In this document: positions 3,294-10,074 of the stretch, piece after piece
Numbering within the stretch: position 1 is the first letter of the stretch
Layout of the letters: each line of letters begins with the position of its first letter
Source of the DNA: Naegleria gruberi
Lineage: Eukaryota
Assembly: GCA_000004985.1 (NCBI GenBank)
Contig: GG739029.1
Strand: one strand, 5' to 3'
DNA length: 10,074 nt
Notes under the pieces: generated by a model
What the model saw: the letters and a program-made list of their open reading frames with translations, nothing else
The model's database searches: none
What the model was told of the DNA's origin: nothing
Translations under genes and position numbers: made by a program

Positions 3294-3606
3294 ATGTCTG
3301 TCACCAAGATGGATCTCTCCATTGCGGAGAAGAAAGCCTACGACTTTCTTATTCGTCAGGAAGAAGCCAAACGTTGGATTGAAGAACTTATCCAAGAAAG
3401 TCTGCCTCCAGGCACTGCTAACTTTGGTGATAACTTGAGAGATGGTATTGCTTTGGCCAAGTTGGGTAAAATCTTTGCTCCAACAGCAATTAAGAAGATT
3501 AACACTCCAAAGTCAGGAAGTGTTTTGGAATTTATGGCTGTTGATAACATTTCCCAATTCTTTGAAGCATGTAAGAAGGTTAATTTCCCTGATCACTATA
3601 TTTTTG
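3294..3606 (+). CDS. IQG1: IQGAP-family protein (Iqg1-like), exon 1, encoding the first half of the calponin-homology (CH) domain
   Basis: Translation MSVTKMDLSIAEKKAYDFLIRQEEAKRWIEELIQESLPPGTANFGDNLRDGIALAKLGKIFAPTAIKK... aligns by eye with the IQGAP1 CH domain: EEAKRW, LPP, LRNGVYLAKLGNFFSP. The exon ends in phase 1 at G3606, immediately before GTATGT. Confidence 0.8.
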
Positions 3607-3836
3607 GTATGTGTTATAATAGTAACAGTTTTTATTCTAATCTATTATGTTCATATTGTTATTCAACTCGTATGATGATGATAATTTGTTGTTGTTATTC
3701 CTTACTTGCTGATTTCCCTCGCTTTTTTCATCAAATCACAAAAAATAATCATCACAAAAATAATGTTCTTCCTCCTATGATGATGGTGAATGATAATGTT
3801 ATTGTTGCTTGTTCTTGATAATATTAACTTTAACAG
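3607..3836 (+). other. Spliceosomal intron (230 nt) in the IQG1-like gene
   Basis: 5' GTATGT at 3607-3612, 3' ...TTTAACAG at 3829-3836. The candidate branch point TATTAAC at 3822-3828 is non-canonical against TACTAAC. The frame-0 continuation is low-complexity and stops at 3818. Splicing restores the conserved CH-domain sequence ...HYIF-E-VTDLWELKN.... Confidence 0.7.
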
Positions 3837-3952: not shown

Positions 3953-5196
3953 NNNNNNNNNNNNNNNNNNNNNNNNNNNNNNNNNNNNNNNNNNNNNNNN
4001 NNNNNNNNNNNNNNNNNNNNNNNNNNNNNNNNNNNNNNNNNNNNNNNNNNNNNNNNNNNNNNNNNNNNNNNNNNNNNNNNNNNNNNNNNNNNNNNNNNNN
4101 NNNNNNNNNNNNNNNNNNNNNNNNNNNNNNNNNNNNNNNNNNNNNNNNNNNNNNNNNNNNNNNNNNNNNNNNNNNNNNNNNNNNNNNNNNNNNNNNNNNN
4201 NNNNNNNNNNNNNNNNNNNNNNNNNNNNNNNNNNNNNNNNNNNNNNNNNNNNNNNNNNNNNNNNNNNNNNNNNNNNNNNNNNNNNNNNNNNNNNNNNNNN
4301 NNNNNNNNNNNNNNNNNNNNNNNNNNNNNNNNNNNNNNNNNNNNNNNNNNNNNNNNNNNNNNNNNNNNNNNNNNNNNNNNNNNNNNNNNNNNNNNNNNNN
4401 NNNNNNNNNNNNNNNNNNNNNNNNNNNNNNNNNNNNNNNNNNNNNNNNNNNNNNNNNNNNNNNNNNNNNNNNNNNNNNNNNNNNNNNNNNNNNNNNNNNN
4501 NNNNNNNNNNNNNNNNNNNNNNNNNNNNNNNNNNNNNNNNNNNNNNNNNNNNNNNNNNNNNNNNNNNNNNNNNNNNNNNNNNNNNNNNNNNNNNNNNNNN
4601 NNNNNNNNNNNNNNNNNNNNNNNNNNNNNNNNNNNNNNNNNNNNNNNNNNNNNNNNNNNNNNNNNNNNNNNNNNNNNNNNNNNNNNNNNNNNNNNNNNNN
4701 NNNNNNNNNNNNNNNNNNNNNNNNNNNNNNNNNNNNNNNNNNNNNNNNNNNNNNNNNNNNNNNNNNNNNNNNNNNNNNNNNNNNNNNNNNNNNNNNNNNN
4801 NNNNNNNNNNNNNNNNNNNNNNNNNNNNNNNNNNNNNNNNNNNNNNNNNNNNNNNNNNNNNNNNNNNNNNNNNNNNNNNNNNNNNNNNNNNNNNNNNNNN
4901 NNNNNNNNNNNNNNNNNNNNNNNNNNNNNNNNNNNNNNNNNNNNNNNNNNNNNNNNNNNNNNNNNNNNNNNNNNNNNNNNNNNNNNNNNNNNNNNNNNNN
5001 NNNNNNNNNNNNNNNNNNNNNNNNNNNNNNNNNNNNNNNNNNNNNNNNNNNNNNNNNNNNNNNNNNNNNNNNNNNNNNNNNNNNNNNNNNNNNNNNNNNN
5101 NNNNNNNNNNNNNNNNNNNNNNNNNNNNNNNNNNNNNNNNNNNNNNNNNNNNNNNNNNNNNNNNNNNNNNNNNNNNNNNNNNNNNNNNNNNNNNNN
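3953..5196. other. Run of 1244 N (assembly gap or masked sequence)
   Basis: Literal n characters. Every track ORF crossing it (3809..5230, 3876..5216, 3880..5223 and 3887..5305) is an artefact of translating N as X. Confidence 0.99.
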
Positions 5197-5250
5197 GAAA
5201 GAGATTATTAAAGTGATGAACAAATCTTGACAATATTAAATCAGTATAGC
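5197..5250 (+). repeat. Copy 1 of a duplicated segment, the paralog of 10021-10074
   Basis: GAAAGAGATTATTAAAGTGATGAACAAATCTTGACAATATTAAATCAGTATAGC vs GAAAGAGATTATTTAAGTGATGAACAAATCTTGACAATATTAAATCAGTATAGC. The single difference is A5210 vs T10034. The duplication probably extends in both directions, beyond the N-run and beyond the window. Confidence 0.85.
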
Positions 5251-5763
5251 CAGTCAATTTTGGATAATGACAATTCCTTTGGAATAGCATGTCAACTATT
5301 AACAAGACTTTTCCAAGAAGTCGAGTGCAACAAACTGAGTGATGTTATTGTAAAATTAAGTGAAAAGTATTATAAGGAAATATCACCTGACATTTTAAGA
5401 ACATACACTAATTGTTTCACATTAAGAGAAGGAGTAGAACTTACTAATATTAAAGATTTTGAAGGGAGACTAAAACTCGATAACGCTATACAAAAATTTA
5501 TGGACATGATTATTGATCCTAAATGGGGAATCAAAAATACTTTCACAAACTTATTAATTACATCGATTAGTGTTTATGAAAGGAAAGTTTTGGATTGCGA
5601 TAAATTCAAGAAAGTGTTGACTCATATCACTGATCGATTAGAAAATCCATCAATGAATCCTACAACCTCATTCAGTTTTCTGGAACCCTCAACAGACTTC
5701 CCCGATTACTGGGAACTAGTAAAAACCATTGAAGAACTGAAAAAGCTAACGAAAAAGCTATGA
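5197..5763 (+). CDS. 3' end of kinase-like paralog copy 1 (its 5' part is lost in the N-run). A 184-aa C-terminal extension region, interrupted by an in-frame TAA at 5209-5211.
   Basis: In frame 1, 5197-5208 encodes E-R-D-Y, then TAA, then an open frame to TGA 5761-5763 (SDEQILTILNQYSQSILDND...KKLTKKL). 5197-5250 is 53/54 identical to 10021-10074, the tail of the kinase-like gene at the window end. There the same codon is TTA (Leu) and the frame stays open. The track ORF 5227..5763 starts at TTG, which is not a eukaryotic start. Confidence 0.5.
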
Positions 5764-6424: not shown

Positions 6425-9106
6425 TTACCTCTTTAATACACAATCACTGAAATCAACATCTTTAACACTGTACTTAATATGAGTGATGGAATCTTGATCT
6501 CTTCCTCCATTAGTTGTGAAGAATCCATTCTCTTTGACTCCTGTAGAATCAAAAGTAAGACAAATTTCATCCTCCCCAACCAAAACAAATGACCTATCAA
6601 ATGCCTTCAAAAGCCAAAAATCACTTTGACCTGCCTCAATGTCAAAATATTTGATATGTTCAAGAAAATGACAAAATTCATCCAACGATTTTCTATTCTC
6701 GAATGTAATGTTCTTCAAACCAATATAAGGGTTTGTAATGTTGCATGTTTTAAATAATGTTGCCAAATTTTCATTCACAAAGAAAGTTCTGTCAGTTTCT
6801 CCTCTTTTCAATTTGTCAAAATAAATTTTGAAAGATTCACTCACTGGAAGTGTCAAATTCAATGCCTCTAATAAATCTGAAACGAAATGTTGGCAATTAG
6901 CCCCTAATAATGAATAATTCTTGGTTGCATTGTAATTGCATGAAATTTTTGTAATCAATTCGAATGCCTTCTTGACATTGTCAGCTCCAGCAATTTCTCC
7001 AATATCAATGGCTGCAATGGTATTATTAGTATCAAGTTTCTGGTCTGAATCGCACTCAACTCTCACCAATGAATTATCATACCATTCAATTTTCCATTCT
7101 CCAATTAAGATTCCTGTGTGAACAACGCCATAATTATTTACATTAAGAATGGCTGCGAATGTAGCCATTGCCTTCTTGGTTAATTCGTGTTTTCCTAAAG
7201 ATGAAACCAATAACTTGACTCTCACAACTGCAGGAATATTGGAAACAATTCTTGAATTTTTCTTCATTGTAGGACGAACAAAGTGAAAATGCATGAATCT
7301 GTCTTCACAGACATATCTTTGAGCTTCCAAATCTAAACTTTCACTGTATCCGACCTTCTCTGGTGTAATGTTGAATTCTTTAAGGCATACTCTAATCTTT
7401 TTCTTGGCCATCTCAACACCTTTAAATTCGGCTTGTGATAATCTCCAGCTTTCTATTGGAATTTGAACATCATATTCTTGATTTTCATTCTCTACACCAT
7501 AAGATTCAGAGGTAACATATGGCCTAGTACTATTATTACATAACTTTAAGAAAGTACTTGTAGTTGTTGGACCATTGGAATCTCTTAAAGTTTTAGAGAA
7601 TGCTCGGTCAACCTTGCCATTCCTTAAATTATCAAAATACTTGTCAAAGCATTCACTCTTTGGAAGTTGCAAATTCAAAGCAGATAGTACCTCAGATGTG
7701 AAATGTTGGCAATTGGCTTTGAATTGGTGATATTGAACTGATCCATTATATTTACAAATAATTTCTGTCAACTTTCTAAATGTTTGCTTAACATTTTCAG
7801 CACCACGTATTTCTCCAATGTCAATTATTGCAAGTGTCTTGTCAGATTCGATTTGTTCACTCCTTATACTAACAGTTGATGAGTTGACCCATTCAATCTT
7901 CCATTCACCAATTAAAAGGCCAGTATGAACAATTCCCATATCAGCATTTGAAAAGTAGCTCATTAACTTGGTCATAAAAGGACTATTACCTAAATCAGAA
8001 ATCAACAACTTGACTCGCAGAAATGGTTCACAATTAACTTTGTTTGATTTTAGGTTTACAATAGAACTCATAAATTCCCTATTTAGTAATCTATCTTCAC
8101 AGACCAAGTTTTGGGCATCCACTTCCAAATCGCCTGTCATTCTAGCATCTTTGGGAGTTCTATTATTCTTTTTCAAGAAATCATAATATTTCTCTAACTT
8201 TTTCTTGACCGTTTCAACCCGATCCCTTTCTAAAAATGTTAGTGCAGTTTTAATAACAGCAGGTGGTGGAATACCTGCCTCTGATGGATTTGTAACTGAC
8301 AACAAAGCTTTTAAGTGTTCGAGAAGGTTAGAATGTAAACCCATTATCTCCTTCGTTGTTTCGTCAATATATTTTCCCACCCCAATCCGGCGCTTTTCAC
8401 GAATCATCATTTGAGCAAAAGTTTCTCCCTTAATCCTAAGAGGCTGTCTAGTAAGCAATTTGAATAATATACATCCCAAACTAAATAAGTCTGCAGATTT
8501 ATCCACTATTTGAGATGCCAATAATACCTCTGGAGCTGTATACTCATTGCTGTGTCTGAATTCTGATGGCTGGTTGTCTAGCACAGAATATTTGAAATCG
8601 AATAATTTAAATGTAAAGTCCTCTTCGAAAAATAAAATGTTTTCAGGTTTTAAATTTCCATGAATAATATTCATGGAATGTAATTTAAGAAGTCCTTTTT
8701 CTATTTGACTATAAATTTTCAAAGATTCTTCCAAATTAGGTTCATAATAAGTTAAATATTCATTCAAATTACAGGTTCCTTTGGGAGAAATTGAATATTT
8801 CAAAAACATGTCATAATCACCTGTATCCCATATTGGGACAATTTCATGTTGATTTACAATTTGTTGTCTTATTTTTTCATGCTTATTGCATTCGTATTCA
8901 GTTAGTATTGTCATTATTATTTCAGAATTGCCATTACCCGAAACTTGTCTCACTCCATAAAATTTCTCTCCTATAGGAACTTCATATTGTCCAATTTTTT
9001 CAATATTTGCGCAATTTTTTAGCTTCAATATTGATGGATTTTCTTTGATCAAATCCTGTTTGGTTGATACTATTATTTTGGTTTGTGAAGAATGTGACGA
9101 CCCCAT
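6425..9106 (-). CDS. 893-aa multidomain protein with an N-myristoylation motif (MGSSHSS), a degenerate kinase domain, two tandem PPPDE/DeSI-like putative Cys peptidase domains, and a C-terminal region of unknown function
   Basis: Single uninterrupted minus-strand ORF. Kinase-like core: ...NIIHGNLKPENILFF (catalytic-loop HRD replaced by HGN, minus-strand codons 8654-8662), FDFKYS (DFG replaced by DFK), EYTAPEVL (APE), DLFSLGCILFKLL. Two repeats of about 270 aa each carry the PPPDE (PF05903-like) hallmarks: VRVKLL[IV]S.LG, VHTG[IL]LIGEWKIEW (compare DeSI GVFHSGIEVYGREFAYGG), IDIGEI, and ANCQHF (compare DeSI HKNCNHFSSAL). Both retain His, at nt 7925-7927 and 7118-7120, and Cys within NCQHF, at 7700-7714 and 6884-6898. 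Confidence 0.85.
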   Translation of the reverse strand: MGSSHSSQTKIIVSTKQDLIKENPSILKLKNCANIEKIGQYEVPIGEKFYGVRQVSGNGNSEIIMTILTEYECNKHEKIRQQIVNQHEIVPIWDTGDYDMFLKYSISPKGTCNLNEYLTYYEPNLEESLKIYSQIEKGLLKLHSMNIIHGNLKPENILFFEEDFTFKLFDFKYSVLDNQPSEFRHSNEYTAPEVLLASQIVDKSADLFSLGCILFKLLTRQPLRIKGETFAQMMIREKRRIGVGKYIDETTKEIMGLHSNLLEHLKALLSVTNPSEAGIPPPAVIKTALTFLERDRVETVKKKLEKYYDFLKKNNRTPKDARMTGDLEVDAQNLVCEDRLLNREFMSSIVNLKSNKVNCEPFLRVKLLISDLGNSPFMTKLMSYFSNADMGIVHTGLLIGEWKIEWVNSSTVSIRSEQIESDKTLAIIDIGEIRGAENVKQTFRKLTEIICKYNGSVQYHQFKANCQHFTSEVLSALNLQLPKSECFDKYFDNLRNGKVDRAFSKTLRDSNGPTTTSTFLKLCNNSTRPYVTSESYGVENENQEYDVQIPIESWRLSQAEFKGVEMAKKKIRVCLKEFNITPEKVGYSESLDLEAQRYVCEDRFMHFHFVRPTMKKNSRIVSNIPAVVRVKLLVSSLGKHELTKKAMATFAAILNVNNYGVVHTGILIGEWKIEWYDNSLVRVECDSDQKLDTNNTIAAIDIGEIAGADNVKKAFELITKISCNYNATKNYSLLGANCQHFVSDLLEALNLTLPVSESFKIYFDKLKRGETDRTFFVNENLATLFKTCNITNPYIGLKNITFENRKSLDEFCHFLEHIKYFDIEAGQSDFWLLKAFDRSFVLVGEDEICLTFDSTGVKENGFFTTNGGRDQDSITHIKYSVKDVDFSDCVLKR
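6845..7228 (-). other. PPPDE/DeSI-like domain 2 (aa about 627-754)
   Basis: VVRVKLLVSSLG...GVVHTGILIGEWKIEW...AAIDIGEIAGADNV...GANCQHFVSDLLEALNL. Confidence 0.7.
7661..8023 (-). other. PPPDE/DeSI-like domain 1 (aa about 362-482)
   Basis: FLRVKLLISDLG...GIVHTGLLIGEWKIEW...AIIDIGEIRGAENV...KANCQHFTSEVLSALNL. Confidence 0.7.
8207..9001 (-). other. Degenerate (pseudo)kinase domain of the 893-aa protein
   Basis: Roughly aa 36-300. Candidate G-loop remnant IGEKFYGV, HGNLKPEN, DFK, APE. The catalytic Asp of HRD is Asn and the DFG glycine is Lys. Confidence 0.65.
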
Positions 9107-9168
9107 TTTTTTGCAAAATTATTGCTTAAATCTAATAATTATCTAGGACGTGATCAGCAAAAAACAAA

Positions 9169-10074
9169 ATGCCTGTAAATCCGCTAGATTACATTCTATT
9201 AAAACTTGTCTCGTTGTCAATATTTAAAAACGTGGATCATATCAAAACTGTACATTTGAGTGCATCTTGTTACTCTTCTAATTATTTTAGAAAAGTAATG
9301 AGAGTCTATTCGGATAAAGAGGAAACTTGTGTTGTTGTAAAATTTTGCACATCCAACATGCCTAATGATGTTATGAAAGTTTATGATAGAATATGTAATA
9401 TAAACTGTGAATATCTTGTCAAACCAATGTACCGTGGCGAAATAGGTGAATATTATTACTTTATTTTCCCACAAGCAAAATGTGATTTAAAACAATTTCT
9501 TGAATCCTATACGACAGCAAAACAAAAATTACTGATATTCCGTGATGTTTGTTCAGGAGTGAAAGCTCTCCATCTAAATAATATCACTCATTGTGATTTA
9601 AAATCGGAAAATGTTTTAATATTTGAGGAGAATGGTCAAATAATTGCCAAGTTGACAGATTTCGATGAAGCCCAAATTTTCGATGAAAATATCACTTCAT
9701 CAACTATTCCGTGCCAGTCGCATTTCTTTAGATCGCCTGAATCTTTTCGTGATGAATTGGAATGCCATAATTTCCCATTGATGGATATGTTTAGTTTGGG
9801 ATGTATTTTGTTTGATTTGTTTCGAGTAACAGAGAGAAAACCATTAGCAGCAATATTTATCAAGTCCAATACAGAAGCAGAAAAATGTGTTAAAGAATCA
9901 ATAGTTGACAATAATCTAAAAGAGCTACTGGTTACTATTTTACTTAAATTAATTACAACCATGGAACAAAGGTTAACTATTAGCGATCTGTTAATCGAAA
10001 TTACACAATTAATCAAAGAAGAAAGAGATTATTTAAGTGATGAACAAATCTTGACAATATTAAATCAGTATAGC
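9169..10074 (+). CDS. Kinase-like protein, a paralog of the N-terminal domain of the minus-strand 893-aa protein. 3'-truncated by the window end. Alternative start at ATG 9298.
   Basis: Frame 1 is open from 9154 to the window end, so no ORF-track entry exists because there is no stop. ATG at 9169 (MPVNPLDY...) lies only 62 bp from the divergent gene's ATG. ATG at 9298 (MRVYSDKEETCVVVKF...) lies 191 bp away and may be the true start. Motifs: HCDLKSENVL (9589-9612, catalytic Asp retained), TDFDEA (DFG replaced by DFD, 9658-9666), RSPESF (APE-like), DMFSLGCILFDLF (compare DLFSLGCILFKLL in the minus-strand gene). No recognisable glycine-rich loop. Confidence 0.75.
   Translation, partial: MPVNPLDYILLKLVSLSIFKNVDHIKTVHLSASCYSSNYFRKVMRVYSDKEETCVVVKFCTSNMPNDVMKVYDRICNINCEYLVKPMYRGEIGEYYYFIFPQAKCDLKQFLESYTTAKQKLLIFRDVCSGVKALHLNNITHCDLKSENVLIFEENGQIIAKLTDFDEAQIFDENITSSTIPCQSHFFRSPESFRDELECHNFPLMDMFSLGCILFDLFRVTERKPLAAIFIKSNTEAEKCVKESIVDNNLKELLVTILLKLITTMEQRLTISDLLIEITQLIKEERDYLSDEQILTILNQYS
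10021..10074 (+). repeat. Copy 2 of the duplicated segment, the paralog of 5197-5250
   Basis: See 5197-5250. Truncated by the window end. Confidence 0.85.

Follow-up and report, generated by a model that had tools for sequence, protein, structure and literature searches.

A tightly spaced head-to-head pair of divergent kinase-superfamily genes, one encoding a predicted pseudokinase fused to putative peptidase modules, in Naegleria gruberi

Within the protein kinase superfamily (PF00069), domains that have lost at least one of three residues, the VAIK lysine, the HRD aspartate or the DFG aspartate, are classed as pseudokinases. HER3/ErbB3 is a pseudokinase of this kind, with an asparagine at the position of the HRD aspartate (HRN). 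In the pairings STRAD-LKB1, HER3-HER2 and JAK JH2-JH1, the partners demonstrably interact or share one chain. Two other described systems bear on the locus presented here: the peptidases of permuted papain fold, which include the PPPDE/DeSI-type (Peptidase_C97) and LRAT-like families, and the bidirectional-promoter pairs, recognised as head-to-head genes whose starts lie less than 1 kb apart and which share a short promoter region. To our knowledge, the promoters of Naegleria are essentially uncharacterised, and the literature searched yielded no account of core or bidirectional promoters in this genus.

The DNA analysed, hereafter the window, is a complete scaffold of 10,074 bp from the amoeboflagellate Naegleria gruberi, AT-rich with a G+C content of about 30-35%. 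Two genes lie back to back in its right-hand part. The minus-strand open reading frame (6425-9106) begins with MGSSHSS at 9106, is closely preceded by an in-frame stop at 9121 and forms a complete single-exon gene. Its 893-aa product matches NAEGRDRAFT_54750 (XP_002668523.1, UniProt D2W575), annotated just as "predicted protein", at 100% identity from end to end. On the plus strand, the frame of the second gene has a stop at 9151, a first ATG at 9169 and a next in-frame ATG at 9298, and remains open for 302 codons through to the end of the window with no stop, a length expected by chance with a probability of about 1e-9 given the local density of stop codons. Translation, Pfam, AlphaFold and Foldseek indicate that this unannotated partial gene (9169-10074) encodes a divergent kinase domain and the start of a C-terminal extension. 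The two genes are thus oriented head-to-head, with ATGs at 9106 (minus) and 9169 (plus), a spacing within the 1-kb limit for bidirectional-promoter pairs; they are separated by a spacer of 62 bp (9107-9168, 24% G+C), a putative promoter region, which would extend to 191 bp (9107-9297) if the ATG at 9298 were used. A previous sequence-only reading had placed a divergent pair of kinase-like genes at this position, and its open reading frame starts and both of its spacers were reproduced. It had also assumed a yeast, in which 62 bp seemed implausibly short for two promoters; the minus-strand product is 100% identical to a Naegleria gruberi protein and, the DNA being from Naegleria and not from a yeast, the argument on yeast promoters has no application here. 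The gene identifiers of the locus are absent from the literature searched, and the gene likewise goes unmentioned in the supplementary material of the N. gruberi methylome study.

The remainder of the scaffold carries other coding sequences. A calponin-homology (CH) domain exon at 3294-3818 on the plus strand (Pfam, E = 2e-12) is followed by an assembly gap of 1,244 N at 3953-5196, and an open reading frame past this gap, at 5227-5763 and with no Pfam match, may belong to the CH-domain gene as a later exon. A long open reading frame at 307-2838 on the plus strand (843 aa from TTG, or 822 aa from its first ATG at 370) contains a C2H2-like CKYCKRFH...H motif, an acidic EQE/KELEQ repeat tract and, at its C-terminus, AT-hook-like RGRPKK/PGRPRKKK motifs. 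It gave no Pfam or PDB match, its exact sequence was absent from the protein collection searched, and it could be a gene of transposon or DNA-binding type.

The minus-strand product matches the PF00069 profile with 79.5 bits (cut-off 31.7; E = 3.5e-22) over residues 66-268. The kinase-like domain, delimited at residues about 40-270 (8297-8989, minus strand), also aligns to the solved structure of SNRK with 59 bits, and its AlphaFold model has a C-lobe with pLDDT values of 86-94 and an N-lobe below 60. In its catalytic loop, HGNLKPEN (8639-8662), Asn151 takes the place of the catalytic aspartate of HRDLKPEN in SNRK, as the sequence-only reading had noticed for one of the two proteins. The DFG motif is replaced by DFK (8591-8599) in the alignments to SNRK and to a second solved kinase, KLFDFK being aligned on the KLTDFG of a solved kinase, so that the Mg-binding Asp170 is kept and the glycine is changed to lysine. 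The predicted strand β3, IIMTIL (8903-8920; AlphaFold strand 62-67, of low confidence), has no lysine at the VAIK position, and the stretch between residues 49 and 74 of the protein is free of lysine. With the HRD aspartate changed to asparagine and the DFG aspartate retained in DFK, the domain is predicted to be a pseudokinase, catalytically dead by the field's sequence definition. The N-terminus MGSSHSS, with Gly2 and Ser6, fits the N-myristoylation motif Met-Gly-x-x-x-Ser/Thr, and from this match the protein is probably N-myristoylated.

The pseudokinase is followed in the same protein by two tandem PPPDE/LRAT-like cysteine-peptidase modules of about 250 aa with 41% identity to each other, delimited by Pfam, by the internal repeat and by a family alignment. 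Module 1 spans residues 297-540 (7487-8218, minus strand), with its VHTG motif at 7919-7930 and its NCQHF motif at 7700-7714, and module 2 spans residues 564-804 (6695-7417, minus strand), with the corresponding motifs at 7112-7123 and 6884-6898. The Pfam profile PF05903 (Peptidase_C97) is matched with 43.4 bits (cut-off 29.2; E = 4e-11), the LRAT profile scoring just under its own cut-off, and no solved structure was matched by the sequence of the module. The histidine of VHTG and the cysteine of NCQHF are invariant in the four modules aligned, which comprise both copies and relatives, and the assignment to PPPDE/Peptidase_C97 is therefore backed by a profile score above cut-off together with a conserved His/Cys dyad. 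These two residues match the His and the NCNHF-type Cys motifs of the DeSI proteins and are, we presume on this basis, the catalytic dyad; the modules would then be putative active peptidases.

The same module occurs apart from kinases. It is found in an N. gruberi protein with a C2 domain, NAEGRDRAFT_47674, which has 78% identity over the aligned module region and lacks a kinase domain. A metagenomic relative of the peptidase module has no kinase domain and unrelated neighbour genes, and on another metagenome contig the module is encoded by two tandem genes, again with no kinase. The metagenome scan with the peptidase module returned just three short contigs, none of the three with a kinase. 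The proteins bearing the module begin with MG and have myristoylation-like N-termini, and the fusion of a pseudokinase to two PPPDE modules was met in no other case in the searches made.

The plus-strand product also belongs to the superfamily, with 76.1 bits against PF00069 (cut-off 31.7) over residues 42-273, and presents a different set of residues. In a MAFFT alignment of 30 kinase domains, supported by the AlphaFold strands, the segment 9241-9351 (IKTVH-LSASCYSSNY-FRKVMRVYS...TCVVVKFCT) corresponds to β1, a degenerate nucleotide loop, β2 and β3, and Lys58 (VVVK, 9331-9342) falls at the VAIK position. The catalytic loop HCDLKSEN (9589-9612) aligns to HRDVKPEN of MAPKAPK3 and HCDLKPEN of DYRK2 and keeps the catalytic Asp143, in agreement with the sequence-only reading, which had given this aspartate to one member of the pair. 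Its remark that both proteins have a non-canonical DFx motif also stands, the plus-strand domain having DFD (9658-9666) aligned to the DFG of solved kinases, with Asp164 kept and the glycine changed to aspartate. A glutamate follows this motif (LTDFDE), as it does in N. gruberi relatives (DHDE), and the SPE of the plus-strand product aligns to the APE of solved kinases. The positions given for HGNLKPEN, DFK, HCDLKSEN and DFD were confirmed by translating the DNA. The loop columns of the alignment are occupied by SASCYSSNY, with zero glycine, and residues 31-36 of the model have pLDDT values below 50. The AlphaFold model as a whole is bilobal (pTM 0.81) and is recognised by Foldseek as a generic kinase fold. 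The residues expected of a competent kinase are thus present as regards the β3 lysine, the catalytic aspartate and the Mg-binding aspartate, and missing as regards the GxGxxG glycine-rich loop and the glycine of DFG, a combination from which the product may be a weak or atypical kinase.

Read from either 9169 or 9298, the plus-strand product finds no identical or nearly identical counterpart in the protein collections searched. Its gene is unannotated, most simply because the end of the scaffold cuts it off, a truncation that is enough to account for the missing gene model. A scan of viral contigs, made to test an origin from a giant virus or another virus, gave no viral relatives of the plus-strand product or of the peptidase module. 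The best single-domain match of the plus-strand product, at 76 bits, is a protein kinase from a metagenome-assembled genome of Candidatus Paceibacterota, which may be a mis-binned eukaryotic contig or a genuine bacterial eukaryote-like kinase.

The choice of the start codon sets the length of the spacer. AlphaFold predicts strands at residues 25-29, 40-48 and 53-61 of the plus-strand product, which places Met44, encoded by the ATG at 9298, in the middle of β2, and residues 25-43 fill the β1, loop and β2 columns of the 30-domain alignment. A start at 9298 would remove β1, the position of the nucleotide loop and half of β2, and the ATG at 9169, the first one past the stop at 9151 and with an A at position -3, is thus favoured together with the 62-bp spacer. 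By completeness of the predicted domain, translation most likely begins at 9169. The option of 9298 as the true start, left open by the sequence-only reading, finds no support, Met44 lying in mid-β2 both in the alignment and in the AlphaFold model.

Considering these features together, we regard the locus as likely to be an ordinary case of two closely set, head-to-head genes of the kinase superfamily, each highly divergent and evolving independently: one codes for a pseudokinase-peptidase and the other, partial in the window, for an atypical kinase. In the gene-dense N. gruberi genome, two separate and divergently transcribed genes would be near neighbours on a small scaffold, and the 62-bp A/T-rich spacer would accommodate the two core promoters along with a very short 5' leader for each gene. 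The pseudokinase of the minus-strand protein would most plausibly be a binding or regulatory module of its own peptidase protein. The adjacency would be due to chance or, at most, to an old and now unrecognisable duplication, and the two genes would be independent in function.

Alignment of the two kinase domains, which the sequence-only reading had proposed as a check, pairs 205 aa at 29% identity (57.8 bits, E = 2e-13). The part of its claim of paralogy that concerns similarity is therefore sound, and the part that concerns a specific kinship is not, the resemblance being merely of superfamily level with better-scoring relatives elsewhere. The motifs on which the claim was built belong to the general consensus of subdomains VIb and IX, 14 unrelated kinases giving NIIHRDLKPENIL and DxWSLGCILF. 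The D.FSLG variant, with phenylalanine in the place of the subdomain IX tryptophan, was examined as a possible shared derived character and discarded, as it is frequent among the matches; the pattern D.FS.G was counted 53 times in the kinases fetched, being present in 39 of the 172 proteins.

For specific paralogues, the closest relative of each member, whether in the genome or in the databases, should be the other member; the scores of the two domains do not place them in this position. An exhaustive HMMER search with the plus-strand product against 1.84 billion cluster representatives yielded 18,921 matches at E <= 1e-3, including 127 at E <= 1e-10 (at least 57.7 bits). The minus-strand neighbour, with 46-48 bits by phmmer, falls below all of these 127 and below two other N. 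gruberi proteins, NAEGRDRAFT_59622 and NAEGRDRAFT_76437 (67 and 64 bits, respectively), which have the unusual D(F/H)DE motif of the plus-strand product, the scores of other kinases reaching up to 76 bits. In a BLAST matrix, the plus-minus comparison gave 60 bits against 75-86 for the plus-strand domain and its best matches and 66-73 for the minus-strand domain and its own, which are CAMK-like and foreign kinases scoring 52-55 bits by phmmer. The best identities of either domain anywhere are about 30-44%, over partial domains, and no orthologue of either was found in other Naegleria or elsewhere in the collections searched. By these comparisons the two domains appear to be related just as members of the eukaryotic protein-kinase superfamily, a sister relationship being lacking. 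Closer paralogues, or other pairs of this kind, may sit in the N. gruberi genome, the searches having covered protein collections.

An old local inverted duplication, after which one copy would have lost its catalytic residues and become fused to the peptidase modules with no need for any present coupling, is an alternative that we consider unlikely. It would explain the significant pairwise similarity, the lack of a canonical glycine-rich loop in both domains and the ...EN(I/V)L.FEE... and D.FSLGCILF variants common to them, and the difference in score from other relatives is small (60 against 66-86 BLAST bits); these variants are, however, frequent among unrelated matches, and either domain scores higher with other kinases, which for the plus-strand product include proteins of the same genome. 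At the DNA level, a 33-nt inverted repeat joins the two genes (8453-8485 and 9790-9822), 82% complementary and covering the codons of FSLGCILF. This identity would be expected of an inverted duplication, but it concerns a single conserved motif written in AT-biased codons, with no other inverted DNA similarity between the genes, and it is more in keeping with codon bias at a conserved motif than with a recent duplication.

The spacer argues for some link between the two genes. The N. gruberi genome is compact, with 57.8% of coding sequence and a mean gene length of 1,677 bp (published genome statistics), and 62 bp is far under the mean spacing of about 1 kb that these statistics imply. With starts 62 bp apart, the core promoters of the two genes have to overlap, and there is room for very short 5' leaders only. 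Such an overlap favours some transcriptional coupling and in this respect counts against the preferred reading of two independent genes, which may well share their promoter. The octamer GCAAAAAA stands just upstream of each ATG (minus strand, 9107-9114; plus strand, 9157-9164), and the middle of the spacer is occupied by a palindromic TATA-like ATAATTAT (9135-9142), 27-29 bp from each ATG. In the whole window GCAAAAAA has two sites, both in the spacer and one per strand. The placement of these motifs is symmetric; their counts in the window are not above chance as judged from shuffles, and an A-rich leader is also found upstream of an unrelated open reading frame.

The roughly symmetric spacer, the starts only 62 bp apart and the combination of a dead partner with a potentially active one, by residue criteria, could also be read as the signature of a functional pseudokinase-kinase module, in which the genes would be co-expressed from a shared bidirectional promoter and the pseudokinase-peptidase would regulate allosterically, scaffold or be a substrate of the neighbouring kinase. 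The sequence-only reading had suggested such a regulatory module, and we judge it quite unlikely. Conserved co-occurrence of the partners, by synteny or by fusion, was the evidence sought, and the protein and metagenome searches returned no head-to-head orthologous pair, no conserved synteny and no fusion, so that the suggestion receives no support from them and the pair appears to be conserved nowhere in the searches made. The spacer motifs, as indicated above, are no more frequent in the window than expected by chance, and the plus-strand kinase, being without a glycine-rich loop, may itself be inactive. NAEGRDRAFT_59622, the relative of the plus-strand product in which a degenerate kinase-like domain precedes the kinase domain, was considered as a "Rosetta stone" fusion of the two partners and rejected: its first domain scores 37-42 bits against the minus-strand pseudokinase, its second domain 53, and the first domain thus shows no specific likeness to this pseudokinase.

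Adjacent kinase genes are, moreover, expected in this genome by chance. From the 265 kinases reported among roughly 15,700-16,600 N. gruberi genes (PMC9928731), we computed an expectation of about 4.2-4.5 adjacent kinase-kinase pairs per genome, including about 1.1 head-to-head.

A bolder proposal would combine the spacer and the domain composition: the 62 bp, with the palindromic TATA-like element in their centre, would be a minimal bidirectional promoter producing near-leaderless, co-regulated transcripts, and the membrane-anchored pseudokinase-peptidase and the atypical, glycine-loop-less kinase would constitute a lineage-specific signalling module. We hold it to be very doubtful. If the two genes were co-regulated from 62 bp, the spacer would nonetheless provide a convenient minimal bidirectional promoter for Naegleria.

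That the plus-strand open reading frame is no functional gene as read, being either a decaying or unexpressed relic or a gene started at 9298, with 191 bp for the promoter region and a kinase-like protein truncated at its N-terminus, is highly improbable: it was left unannotated by the genome project, its nucleotide loop is degenerate with poorly modelled residues 31-36 and no close homologue was found in the collections searched, but it runs free of stops for at least 302 codons in DNA of roughly 30% G+C, has a complete kinase fold in a confident model and starts at the first ATG after the 9151 stop, with an A at position -3 and residues 25-43 aligned to β1/loop/β2, and truncation at the scaffold end is enough to explain the missing gene model.

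The ordinary head-to-head pair that we prefer brings several gains for the annotation of N. gruberi. An unannotated kinase gene, truncated by the end of its scaffold, is added together with its likely start codon, and NAEGRDRAFT_54750 receives a domain composition of a predicted pseudokinase and two PPPDE/LRAT-like modules.

Of the described systems, the two genes resemble bidirectional pairs with a short promoter region by their divergent orientation and start codons 62 bp apart, a likeness in gene positions. The modules of the minus-strand protein join the PPPDE/DeSI-type (Peptidase_C97) and LRAT-like permuted papain-fold peptidases by profile score and by their invariant histidine and cysteine, and differ from them in being tandem-duplicated and fused to a predicted pseudokinase, their activity being putative. 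Both kinase-like domains fall in the PF00069 superfamily, CAMK/CMGC-like but unclassifiable, and align to solved kinases across subdomains VIb-IX, whereas they are very divergent from its typical members, without a canonical GxGxxG loop and with the glycine of DFG replaced. Unlike STRAD-LKB1, HER3-HER2 and JAK JH2-JH1, with their demonstrated interactions or common chain, the two partners are linked here by genomic adjacency alone. The minus-strand domain nevertheless shares with the pseudokinases that have an asparagine in HRD, such as HER3/ErbB3, the loss of the catalytic aspartate (HGN), and is apparently also devoid of the β3 lysine.
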